From NCBI GenBank assembly GCA_027493955.1, contig JAOSJT010000001.1:3960586-4024585 (forward strand): a stretch of 64,000 nucleotides of DNA, given 5' to 3'. Shown here piece after piece: positions 32,798 through 35,149 of this stretch (position 1 is the stretch's first letter; each line of letters opens with the position of its first letter). The notes under the pieces are model-generated. The model was not told where the DNA came from and ran no database searches. It worked only from the letters and a program-made list of their open reading frames with translations. The DNA comes from Bacteroidia bacterium. GTDB lineage: Bacteria; Bacteroidota; Ignavibacteria; SZUA-365. The position numbers were made by a program, and so were the translations under genes.

Positions 32798-35149
32798 GTG
32801 ACCGCAGACAGAATACATTTGATCGGGTCCTCGCCCACGCTCAAGGTCGCCGCGAAAGCCAAGGCGCTGAAAGAGCAGGGTGTGGACGTCATAGACTTCA
32901 GCGTGGGCGAGCCGGACTTCGGCACGCCCGCGCATATCAAGGATGCCGCCAAGCGCGCCATCGACGAAAACTTCACCAAGTACACCGCCAACGAGGGCAT
33001 TCTCCCGCTGCGCAAGGCCATCGCCGCGCATCTGAAAGAGGAATGCAATCTCGTGTACGATCCCGGGACGGAAATCATCGTCAGCAACGGCGCGAAGCAC
33101 TCCATCTACAACGCCATGATGGCCATCGTCAACGACGGCGACGAAGTCATCATCCCCGCGCCGTACTGGGTGTCGTATCCCGAAATGGTGAAGCTCGCCA
33201 ACGGCAAGCCGGTGATCGTACAGACCCGCGAGGAAGACGGCTTCCGCCTGACGCCGGATCAGCTCCGCGAACACATCAACGCGAGTACGCGCGCGGTGTT
33301 TCTCAACAATCCTTCCAATCCCACGGGCTCGGGCTATTCGCGCGAAGAACTCGAGGCGCTGGCCGACGTCATCGTCGAGGAAGACATCTACGTCATTGCC
33401 GACGAAATTTACGGCAAGCTGATGTACGACAGCCTGAAGTTCACCCGCTTTGCATCGCTCGGACCCGAGGTGTGGAAACGCACCATCACCATAGACGGCG
33501 TGTCCAAGGCCTACAGCATGACGGGCTGGCGCATCGGCTGGGCCGCCGCACCGAAGGACATCGTTTCGGCCATGGCCAAGGTGCAGAGCCACGCCACGTC
33601 CAATCCCTCGTCCATATCGCAACGTGCGGCGCTGGAAGCGTACAAGGGACCGCAGTACGAAATTTCCAAAATGGCGGCTGAGTTCGAGAAGCGCCGCAAT
33701 TTCGTGGTGTACAAGCTGCAATCCATCCCCGGCGTTTCCTGTCCCATGCCCCGCGGCGCGTTCTACGCCTTCCCGAACGTGAAGTCCTTTTATGATAAGG
33801 AGTTCGAAGGTGTACCCATCCGCAACAGCTACGGCATGGCATATTACCTGCTCAAGCATGCGAATGTGGCCATTGTGCCGGGCGACGCCTTCGGTTCGGA
33901 CGACTTCATCCGAATCAGCTATGCAACATCCATGTCCAACTTGCAGGACGGCATGGCCCGCATTGCCGAGGCTCTCTCGAAGCTCAAGCCCGCGCCCAAG
34001 CGCAAGCTCATCAAGCTCGCGAATACGGAAACCGTGGTGAAGCATATCGTGCAGTCCGAAGACGAAGTGCGCATCGACAAGCGCAACGCCCTCGTGGCCG
34101 AAGCGGAAGCCGAGCTGAGCTACAGCAACTACTTCGAATGGAATGCCAATATCAACGGACTCATCGTGCAGCTCCGCACCAACGTGGGGCATCTGTACGA
34201 TTTCTGGGTGGAAAACTGGTATCCCGCGCAGCTCGAAGCAGACATCGAACCGCATGGCGTGATTTACGCTGTGGACGGTGTGGCGGGGCGCGAATCGCAT
34301 GCCTTCTACAACAGCGACACCAAAACCGGCATCCTGTTCAACTGCGACCATTACGGATCGCTGCGCTCGCTCGCTCTCGGACTCGTCAGCGACGTTGCCG
34401 AGCGGCATAGCGACGTGCACGCCATTCGCGCGCTGTCCATGGACATCAACGGCGAGGGCGTGCTGTTTATCGGACCATCCGGTACGAAAAAGACGGAGCT
34501 GTTCTGGCGCCTCTTCTCCGAACGCGATGAAACCGCACTGCACAGCTACGACTATCTGTTTGTGCGCTATGGCGGCGGCTATGCGGCCGCGGACAATCCC
34601 GAGCGCAAGATGTACATGCCCACCAATACCGTCGAGTCCTGGGACGGCCTGGCAAAGCTTTTCGACAAGAGCAAATGCGAGAACGTGACTACGCGTGTCG
34701 AGGACTGCCGTAACGACAAGCACAAAGTGAACGACAGTTGCCGCCTCAACAGCGGCGCGCCGTACAGCTACTCCTGCGCGAAGAAAAGCCATGCCATGCT
34801 CGATCCCTACTGGCTGGGGGGCATGTCGCGTCACGTCAAGCGCATCGATATACGGCATGTGTTCATTCTCCGCAACGATCCCGTGTCGGCCGCAGTGCAG
34901 AAGCTCGATGTCGAGGATGCGCTGCATCAGATTGAGGCCGGCTATCCGGCGGGTACGTCCGGAGGCAAGCAGGAGCAGTGGTACAATCCGCATCTGCTGC
35001 TGCGCGGGCAGGATCGTTTCGATTTGCAGAAAACTTTCTTTGGCAAACTGTTCCGTTCGGCCGCGGTGTATCAGCTCAACGCCGGTACAGCCACGGTGAC
35101 GGAAATGGCGCAGCATGTTTTGAAAAACGTCGGCGTAAGCGGAAGGTGA
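32798..35149 (+). CDS. fusion protein: class-I aspartate aminotransferase (residues 1-400) plus a PEP-carboxykinase(ATP)-like C-terminal domain (residues 400-783) with altered active-site motifs
   Basis: Complete AspAT (SKAYSMTGWRIGW PLP-lysine region). The C-terminal domain aligns to the PckA nucleotide-binding half: HYGSLRSLA vs YGGEMKKG, VLFIGPSGTKKTELF vs ALFFGLSGTGKTTLS, YGGGYAAA vs EGGCYAKT, VFILRNDPVSAAVQKL vs IFLTADAFGVLPPVSKL. Confidence 0.7.
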   Translation: MTADRIHLIGSSPTLKVAAKAKALKEQGVDVIDFSVGEPDFGTPAHIKDAAKRAIDENFTKYTANEGILPLRKAIAAHLKEECNLVYDPGTEIIVSNGAKHSIYNAMMAIVNDGDEVIIPAPYWVSYPEMVKLANGKPVIVQTREEDGFRLTPDQLREHINASTRAVFLNNPSNPTGSGYSREELEALADVIVEEDIYVIADEIYGKLMYDSLKFTRFASLGPEVWKRTITIDGVSKAYSMTGWRIGWAAAPKDIVSAMAKVQSHATSNPSSISQRAALEAYKGPQYEISKMAAEFEKRRNFVVYKLQSIPGVSCPMPRGAFYAFPNVKSFYDKEFEGVPIRNSYGMAYYLLKHANVAIVPGDAFGSDDFIRISYATSMSNLQDGMARIAEALSKLKPAPKRKLIKLANTETVVKHIVQSEDEVRIDKRNALVAEAEAELSYSNYFEWNANINGLIVQLRTNVGHLYDFWVENWYPAQLEADIEPHGVIYAVDGVAGRESHAFYNSDTKTGILFNCDHYGSLRSLALGLVSDVAERHSDVHAIRALSMDINGEGVLFIGPSGTKKTELFWRLFSERDETALHSYDYLFVRYGGGYAAADNPERKMYMPTNTVESWDGLAKLFDKSKCENVTTRVEDCRNDKHKVNDSCRLNSGAPYSYSCAKKSHAMLDPYWLGGMSRHVKRIDIRHVFILRNDPVSAAVQKLDVEDALHQIEAGYPAGTSGGKQEQWYNPHLLLRGQDRFDLQKTFFGKLFRSAAVYQLNAGTATVTEMAQHVLKNVGVSGR

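Follow-up and report, generated by a model that had tools for sequence, protein, structure and literature searches.

Phosphoenolpyruvate carboxykinase (PEPCK) and aspartate aminotransferase (AspAT) act at the oxaloacetate (OAA) node that joins amino-acid catabolism, gluconeogenesis and anaplerosis, and OAA itself is scarce and unstable. The solved AspATs of class Ib, among them those of Phormidium lapideum (1j32) and Thermus thermophilus (1bjw/1bkg) and the aspartate/prephenate aminotransferases 6f35 and 5wmh, are chains of 382-410 amino acids (aa) with no C-terminal extension; the plant bifunctional enzyme 5wmh has 475 aa. Here we describe an AspAT of this kind that does carry such an extension. 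It is encoded in a stretch of 64,000 nucleotides (hereafter the window) from a Bacteroidia bacterium of the Ignavibacteria (GenBank assembly GCA_027493955.1, contig JAOSJT010000001.1, positions 3,960,586 to 4,024,585), by an open reading frame (ORF) of 783 aa at 32798..35149 of the window. The extension, a C-terminal domain (CTD) of 384 residues, is related to ATP-type PEPCK (PckA), and a genuine PEPCK gene begins 4 nt behind the fusion. The fusion ORF, its parts and the PEPCK and flotillin genes on either side of it all lie on the plus strand.

Within the PEPCK-like superfamily the CTD represents a new domain family, and its attachment to AspAT is a new architecture. Public annotations call these proteins either 'aminotransferase' or 'PEPCK'. 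In the literature that we searched there was no description of an AspAT-CTD fusion, of an assembly of AspAT with PEPCK or of a PEPCK pseudo-paralogue acting as a subunit; most subscription journals lay outside this coverage, and the absence is no proof.

An aspartate aminotransferase fused to a compact PEPCK

The fusion ORF is uninterrupted, has a GTG start and is uniform in base composition along its length. Its N-terminal part (residues 1-397; 32798..33988) is a class-I, subgroup Ib-like AspAT. Residues 30-389 cover the whole Pfam profile PF00155 (positions 2-361 of 361, E 1e-75), and the class Ib AspATs named above match residues 1-397 at E ~1e-106, with 1j32 as the best PDB match over its full length (E 2.7e-106); the alignment to 5wmh begins at residue 74 of that enzyme. 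Among the NCBIfam models aspartate transaminase scores best, with 437 bits against an equivalog cut-off of 617. We found 78 full-length orthologues of the fusion (725-791 aa) in several phyla, and K237, D202, Y205, N174, R372, K100 and W244/R245 are each present in 78 of 78. AspAT structures assign these types of residue to the Schiff base with pyridoxal phosphate (PLP; Lys), to the binding of PLP (Asp, Tyr and Asn) and to the alpha-carboxylate of the substrate (Arg). The PLP lysine, Lys237, has its codon at 33506-33508 within the motif SKAYSMTGWR, and K100 of a G-A-K motif is presumably, judging by the motif, the subgroup-Ib lysine for the distal carboxylate, equivalent to K109 of T. thermophilus. 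Judged by these residues nothing is missing from the AspAT half, which is expected to be active; the initial annotation of this gene had likewise described a complete class-I AspAT with its PLP lysine at the N-terminus.

The linker between the two domains (residues ~398-413; 33989..34036) has a fixed length and is partly conserved (L396, K397, L407, N409 and T412), and not a single indel falls within residues 390-412 across the 78 orthologues. In all 78 the fusion is in frame, as the initial annotation had noted for this one gene, and aminotransferase and CTD are contiguous in one frame at every fetched locus with enough upstream DNA. Full-length fusion proteins of 779-817 aa are present in several public sources. 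One orthologue on a Zixibacteria chromosome derived from a metagenome-assembled genome (MAG; locus L004 8001-9577, CP070796.1) is annotated as partial: the 5' part of its aminotransferase is disrupted, which leaves no more than residues 259-397 in one frame with the CTD. Either the gene has become a pseudogene or a frameshift error in long reads accounts for the break.

The CTD spans residues 400-783 (33995..35146). Single-sequence searches came up empty: for these residues there was no Pfam model even at E 10 and no PDB sequence match, BLASTP found no similarity to the neighbouring PEPCK, and no NCBIfam PEPCK or kinase model was reached, neither Pfam nor NCBIfam having a model for the domain. 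Thus only profile and structure methods detect its kinship, and the motif alignment to PckA that had been made by eye lacked statistical support from any of these searches. An AlphaFold2 model of the CTD built from 41 homologues has a mean local confidence (pLDDT) of 90.9 and a global score (pTM) of 0.89. When this model was compared with the PDB by Foldseek, the top 35 matches were all ATP-type PEPCKs (E ~1e-16, TM-score ~0.70). Profile comparison by hhalign gave the same relationship, the profile of the window family matching PEPCK with a probability of 95.8 % and E 7.6e-9 (residues 105-318 to PckA 193-388) and the profile of a clade of standalone relatives with 96.9 % over 312 columns (residues 21-356 to PckA 85-454). 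One standalone relative, P0084, matches the NCBIfam PEPCK subfamily NF006821 directly at E 8.6e-12. On these models and profiles the CTD is a compact PEPCK, with the cores of both lobes (PckA ~85-454). The earlier assignment to PEPCK is thereby borne out in its fold; its restriction to the C-terminal half of PckA is not, as the cores of both domains are represented.

Compared with PckA (1ii2, 1aq2, 1j3b; PF01293; subfamily NF006821), the CTD keeps the order and the spacing of the motifs. Common to both are Y-x-G-x-x-K/R, the strand with the H232 position, the P-loop, H-S-x-D, E-x-x-x-Y-x-x-T, (L/C)ENV, xRxxxP/DP and the NTG strand. The CTD is ~150 residues shorter, being without the N-terminal 80-odd residues and several insertions. 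Unlike PckA it has an extra lysine in the P-loop and a Cys-rich insert, sits behind an aminotransferase and matches no PEPCK profile at threshold. At ~15 % identity PEPCK is too distant an outgroup for a reliable rooted phylogeny of these domains. We use the name mini-PEPCK for this domain and its relatives. Its homologues form 147 clusters in a collection of 5.8 billion proteins and 180 representatives at 50 % clustering, and relatives occur in 420 of ~186,000 species-level genomes. A class of proteins of 450-570 aa (P0167, P0171, P0177, P0199 and P0222) has only the N-terminal lobe and the P-loop in common with mini-PEPCK, matching query residues ~29-193; the C-terminal ~300 aa are unrelated and unannotated. 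One relative, P0206, carries an intein inserted after the P-loop region.

A further domain with which we compared the CTD is the C-terminal domain of HPr kinase/phosphorylase (PF07475; 1ko7, 1jb1). It aligns to only ~140-150 of the 384 CTD residues, whereas the match to PEPCK extends over the entire domain and has twice the strength. The CTD has no HprK signature and no match over threshold to PF07475 or TIGR00679. Among its relatives there are weak matches of the P-loop region to Hpr_kinase_C, at E ~1e-5 to 1e-6 and under the gathering cut-off, and also to TIGR00679. The family PF27840 (ScmC), which is listed for some relatives, gave faint matches only; these reflect the P-loop common to HprK and PEPCK and are uninformative.

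A remodelled active site

Residues of the CTD were equated with those of PckA by hhalign and counted in 78 AspAT-fused domains, 25 standalone domains and 94 archaeal domains that are fused to PEPCK. We number them within the CTD, where R145 is Arg544 and the Walker lysine Lys166 is Lys565 of the fusion. The roles of the PckA residues in Mn2+ ligation, substrate binding and catalysis are established PEPCK enzymology.

Two of the three Mn2+ ligands have been lost. At the position of K213 (CTD 125) there is Ser in 74 AspAT-fused, 24 standalone and 74 archaeal domains. At that of H232 (CTD 145) Arg is found in all 78 AspAT-fused and in 93 archaeal domains, while 24 standalone domains keep His; in the window this residue is Arg544 (34427..34429), placed by the pairing of GVHSIHGSC with GIASMHCSA. 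The third ligand, D269 (CTD 186), is kept as Asp in 76 AspAT-fused and all 25 standalone domains, and is Asp in 58 and Glu in 36 archaeal ones. Substrate-contact and neighbouring positions have changed as well. Y207 (CTD 119) corresponds to Asn in 34, His in 24 and Tyr in 12 AspAT-fused domains, to Tyr in 25 standalone domains and to Ser (30), Phe (29) or Asp (13) in archaea; K212 (CTD 124) to Arg in 76 AspAT-fused and 92 archaeal domains as against Lys in 25 standalone ones; D268 (CTD 185) to Asn (53) or Tyr (7), to Asp in 25 standalone domains, and to Asn (31), His (21) or Asp (17) in archaea. K288 (CTD 209) has become Pro in 66 and Gln in 8 AspAT-fused domains, Arg in 25 standalone domains and Lys (62) or Arg (19) in archaea. 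At the R333 position (CTD 266) the AspAT-fused domains have His (41), Tyr (14) or Ala (11) and the archaeal ones His (33), Tyr (31) or Phe (25), with Arg in all 25 standalone domains. The R65 position (CTD 14) is not conserved in the 78 AspAT-fused domains (Arg in 39, Val in 15 and Lys in 8). Because two of three Mn2+ ligands and most substrate-contact residues are gone, canonical PEPCK chemistry by the CTD is, on these alignments, very unlikely.

The P-loop tells a different part of the story. In the window it reads G-P-S-G-T-K-K-T-E (residues 559-567; 34472..34498) and aligns by hhalign with PckA 248-256, and the pairing of GPSGTKKT with GLSGTGKT in the initial annotation was right, as was that of VFILRNDP...VQKL with its PckA counterpart. 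Walker Lys565 and Thr566 are retained and the Gly preceding the Lys has become Lys564. Across the 78 orthologues the loop is conserved as G (78), P (75), G (78), T (78), K or R (62 and 6), K (78) and T or S (69 and 8), so compared with the Kinase-1a P-loop G-x-x-G-x-G-K-[ST] the Gly before the Lys is Lys or Arg in 68 of 78. That position (G253, CTD 165) is Gly in 25 standalone and 85 archaeal domains. The Walker lysine itself (K254, CTD 166) is Lys in all 25 standalone domains and in 35 archaeal ones, where Arg (27), Ile (22) and Val (9) are also found; at T255 (CTD 167) the standalone domains have Ser (21) or Thr (4) and the archaeal ones Thr (33), Ser (30), Tyr (11) or Asn (10). The counterpart of PckA EGGCYAKT had been placed at YGGGYAAA, which was wrong: ERKMYMPT (residues 602-609; 34601..34624) aligns instead, with PckA E282-G-G-C-Y-A-K288-T set against E203-R-K-x-Y-x-P209-T and Lys288 changed to Pro. 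In this motif E203 is conserved in 76, R204, K205 and T210 each in 78 and P209 in 66 of the 78. The remark that the Walker context and the YAKT lysine are changed thus holds for the Gly before the Lys and for K288, but the Walker Lys and the Thr have been retained.

As the Walker Lys, R145, R204 and K205 are each present in 78 of 78 orthologues, the pocket is not decaying; by its conservation pattern it is remodelled to a strongly basic and highly conserved site under strong purifying selection. R124 and D186 (76 of 78 each) and the Walker Thr/Ser (77 of 78) fit into the same pattern. The pseudo-enzyme or regulatory module that had been considered as a second option is therefore nearer the evidence, but 'degenerate' is the wrong word for it.

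The Cys-rich insert (residues 627-660; 34676..34777) contains C627, C637, H642, C648 and C660, with H642 where most orthologues have Cys and C660 replacing their C657. In CTD numbering, Cys occupies position 228 in 78, 238 in 77 and 249 in 77 of the orthologues; position 243 is Cys in 58 and His in 19, position 258 Cys in 59 and Ser in 19, and position 261 Cys in 20. A swap of ligands is seen in ~19-20 of the 78, this window included, with C243 changed to His, and C258 to Ser together with A261 to Cys. Because the ligand positions swap in such a compensatory way, the insert is a probable metal site, of Zn or Fe-S type. The short standalone and archaeal forms lack it.

Neighbouring genes and relatives

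The gene that follows the fusion (35154..37013) had been overlooked. It starts 4 nt past the stop codon of the fusion and encodes a PEPCK of 619 aa that matches PF01293 at 5.4e-23, over the gathering cut-off, and has NF006821 as its best NCBIfam model with 270 bits. The equivalents of Y207, K212, K213, H232, K254, S/T255, D268, D269, K288 and R333 are present in 65 of 65 orthologues, and by these residues the gene is a genuine, divergent and catalytically complete ATP-type PEPCK. Since 270 bits fall short of the cut-off of 369 and identity to the PEPCK half of an archaeal protein (P0134) is 40 % (542 residues, E 2e-127), NF006821 is the closest subfamily and the gene belongs to a divergent branch. 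It ends in a low-complexity C-terminal extension of ~60 aa (36831..37010) that closes with a basic, Trp-rich ...RPRKPGVWRWR. Among the 65 orthologues RP[RK][RK] occurs within the last 16 residues in all 65, Trp in the last 6 in 57 and a G.WRWR end in 34; the proteins of Bacteroidota and Calditrichota end in ...EPVsRPrKPGvWRWR, those of Aminicenantes in SKSRPRRxgFWRSR. E. coli PckA and P0134 have no such motif. The tail could be a peptide that targets the enzyme to the membrane or to flotillin, or one with which it docks on the AspAT-CTD protein.

Directly upstream of the fusion lies a gene for a FloT-like flotillin with an SPFH/Band_7 domain, a probable Flot region and an N-terminal transmembrane segment (31308..32693). 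It matches Band_7 at 7.5e-26, Flot at 2.1e-5 (25.1 bits against a cut-off of 27) and the NCBIfam FloT model NF058507 with 331 bits against a cut-off of 700. To look at the conservation of this neighbourhood we clustered every ORF of 90 codons or more, counted from its first ATG, in 80 related loci and in the 20 kb of the window that surround the fusion (81 sources). The fusion was present in 81 of 81, and flotillin and PEPCK in 75 each; in its 75 sources, across phyla, the flotillin gene stands directly upstream on the same strand, and PEPCK is next to the fusion in ~66 of the 80 loci. These three are the only families conserved across lineages among the clustered neighbours, and the cassette is found in Bacteroidota/Ignavibacteria, Calditrichota, Aminicenantes, Holophagales and Fischerbacteria; one of its carriers is a MAG labelled Caldithrix abyssi (L057). 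The cassette joins a flotillin gene to those of two soluble enzymes of central metabolism. Neighbours resembling a SIS-type isomerase, RNase PH, acyltransferases and an NAD-dependent epimerase proved to be lineage-specific and lie outside the cassette, and a scan for sigma-70 promoters and terminators stayed at background level and is uninformative for this lineage. Of the genes that flank the cassette in the window, those at 28973-30883, 37590-37886 and 37793-40159 carry C-terminal sorting domains of type IX secretion (Por_Secre_tail); one of them has BNR/sortilin-like repeats, and the 98-aa ORF at 37590-37886 is little beyond a lone sorting domain. These sorting domains agree with a Bacteroidota/FCB-group origin of the window, and so do the MAGs that match best, at 85-91 % identity.

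The accessory domain is also found joined to PEPCK itself. A search with representatives yielded P0134 (899 aa), in which the accessory domain is followed by a complete PEPCK, and from there ~95 clusters of proteins of 880-910 aa that are annotated only as 'phosphoenolpyruvate carboxykinase' (P0265-P0359). They come from Hod-, Hel-, Loki- and Freyarchaeota (Asgard), Bathyarchaeia, Altiarchaeota and Hydrothermarchaeales and have an unannotated mini-PEPCK domain of ~340 aa N-terminal to a PEPCK of NF006821 type. P0314 passes the NF006821 model with 436 bits, and its accessory domain is 32 % identical to the window CTD (E 3e-44). A deltaproteobacterial MAG (RBG_13_61_14, locus L093 3915-6599) encodes an 894-aa ORF of the same design; the public call for this gene is 5'-truncated to 532 aa (P0365), and purA and serA lie upstream. 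In these archaeal and deltaproteobacterial proteins the accessory domain is on PEPCK and not on AspAT, and they have neither the Cys-rich insert nor the ENV motif; the PEPCK of P0134 also lacks an RW-rich tail, unlike that of the window. R124, R145, N185 and H/Y266 are derived states common to AspAT-fused and PEPCK-fused domains, where standalone domains keep K, H, D and R. In 59 of 94 archaeal fusions the Walker lysine is replaced by R, I or V, and because it is lost so often there, the accessory domain can do without catalysis, at least in proteins that join it covalently to PEPCK. There was no flotillin or aminotransferase neighbour at the three archaeal-fusion loci examined (L090, L091 and L092). 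At two Asgard loci a regulator of the AsnC/Lrp type, which is amino-acid-responsive, precedes the fusion gene, and at L092 a GTP-type PEPCK adjoins it.

Standalone mini-PEPCKs of ~357-410 aa occur in Deltaproteobacteria MAGs and on archaeal-type contigs. They consist of the same compact domain over their full length, with 35-41 % identity to the window CTD. Their P-loop is the canonical GTGK[ST], the H232 position is still His, the DD pair is present, and Arg stands at both the R333 and the K288 position. On this residue set they are probably active enzymes. No AspAT, PEPCK or flotillin/SPFH neighbour was found at the standalone loci examined that could name a substrate. Downstream of the deltaproteobacterial genes comes a gene for an NfeD1b/S49 protease, overlapping by 4 nt at locus L001; NfeD and SPFH proteins are usually encoded together in operons.

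Possible function and meaning

The reading that we favour, and to which we give about an even chance, is that the fusion combines an active AspAT with a PEPCK-derived accessory domain that partners the adjacent PEPCK and does not itself make phosphoenolpyruvate (PEP). By this reading the CTD and the neighbouring gene go back to one PEPCK subfamily; the domain has lost the Mn2+ and OAA/PEP chemistry and kept a conserved, very basic P-loop pocket (Walker Lys/Thr, R124, R145, K165, R204 and K205). As a partner subunit it might dock the neighbouring PEPCK onto the AspAT dimer, and OAA from (or for) aspartate would then pass between the two active sites. The pocket would probably bind a nucleotide or some other phospho- or carboxylate anion as an allosteric signal. 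Coupling of CTD and PEPCK is suggested by their conserved adjacency together with the independent fusion of the domain to that PEPCK subfamily. In anaerobes that degrade peptides the flux might plausibly run in the gluconeogenic direction, from Asp through OAA to PEP, and the reverse is equally possible. The data show directly what the domains are, their fold, the replaced residues with their conservation, the order of the genes and the other kind of fusion; a physical complex of the AspAT-CTD protein with PEPCK, channelling, a bound ligand, the way in which flux runs and a part for the flotillin are what we infer from genomics. The earlier idea of channelling through a covalent fusion survives in this modified form, with the link from CTD to PEPCK made by adjacency and by separate fusions, and association and channelling deduced from them. 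Enzyme/pseudo-enzyme pairs and OAA metabolons such as that of malate dehydrogenase and citrate synthase are similar in that an altered paralogue partners an active enzyme or that OAA enzymes are held together. These are analogies only, and unlike in the known metabolons the association of AspAT and PEPCK comes here from genomics alone.

Several observations weigh against this reading. At least five loci of Aminicenantes type (L060, L063, L064, L066 and L069) have fusion and flotillin with no PEPCK in the ~2.4-6 kb of downstream flank, and PEPCKs of the same subfamily occur with no accessory domain nearby (L094 and L095). The full-length AlphaFold2 monomer has no defined inter-domain pose (pTM 0.53, with pLDDT below 50 in the linker, 401-414), and it therefore offers no structural argument on channelling. 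Identity of the window CTD to the standalone clade (35-41 %) is overall slightly higher than that to the archaeal accessory domains (28-34 %), so the substitutions common to AspAT-fused and PEPCK-fused domains may be convergent. The equivalences with PckA residues come from profile alignment. Finally, the invariant Walker Lys/Thr of the bacterial fusions would fit a catalytic phosphotransferase equally well.

Such a phosphotransferase of new specificity, be it a regulator of PEPCK or AspAT similar to HprK/P or PDRP or a Mn-independent small-molecule kinase acting on a compound derived from Asp or OAA, seems to us unlikely overall, yet it is the main rival. The 78 bacterial fusions show next to no variation at the Walker Lys/Thr, D186 (equivalent to D269), H183 or E203-R204-K205, and the sub-threshold matches of relatives to Hpr_kinase_C and TIGR00679 point in the same direction. 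The near-canonical catalytic set of the standalone relatives (K, H, GTGK[ST], DD and R) suggests that the ancestor of the family was probably an enzyme. Against a kinase in the fusion speak the homologous archaeal domains, 59 of 94 of which have no Walker Lys, the failure of the CTD to reach any Pfam or NCBIfam kinase model, and a gene context that names no substrate. We regard it as very improbable that the protein is a bifunctional AspAT-PEPCK in which the CTD itself interconverts OAA and PEP, the first proposal of the initial annotation. The PEPCK fold, the P-loop Lys/Thr, the kept D269 equivalent and OAA as the compound common to both reactions would suit it, but in practically every one of the 78 orthologues other residues stand in place of five that bind Mn2+ or substrate (K213→S, H232→R, D268→N/Y, K288→P and R333→H), there is no conserved R65 equivalent, no PEPCK profile is significant on the CTD and a complete PEPCK only 4 nt downstream would make a second one redundant. 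An artefact, in which a frameshift or mis-assembly had falsely joined an aminotransferase to a hypothetical gene, has next to no probability. Nothing speaks for it, although the Zixibacteria relative has a disrupted 5' part; since the same in-frame junction with its invariant linker length recurs in 78 of 78 orthologues from independently assembled genomes, we consider it excluded.

The partner-subunit reading might be extended further. Mini-PEPCK would then be a dedicated non-catalytic or allosteric (nucleotide- or anion-sensing) subunit of this little-studied PEPCK clade, which in the FCB group and Acidobacteriota tethers the AspAT dimer; the assembly would be recruited by flotillin through the RW-rich tail of PEPCK to form a membrane-associated Asp-OAA-PEP channelling metabolon, in which the Cys/His metal site would provide further control by redox state or metal, and in archaea the subunit would be fused to the enzyme. 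This picture as a whole we consider speculative and quite doubtful.

If a role as partner subunit were true, a new accessory subunit would be added to a whole PEPCK clade, fused either to AspAT or to PEPCK. Members of this clade are prominent among uncultured bacteria that degrade peptides (Aminicenantes, Calditrichota and Ignavibacteria/Bacteroidota) and among Asgard archaea and Bathyarchaeia. The annotation of hundreds of proteins is affected, which matters for the metabolic reconstruction of these lineages. The family also forms a graded series, from a probable enzyme (standalone) through a remodelled site (AspAT-fused) to forms without a P-loop (some archaeal fusions), that is useful for studying the origins of pseudo-enzymes. 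For the bacteria that carry the cassette, it would mean an OAA-handling enzyme assembly that is genetically hard-wired and testable.

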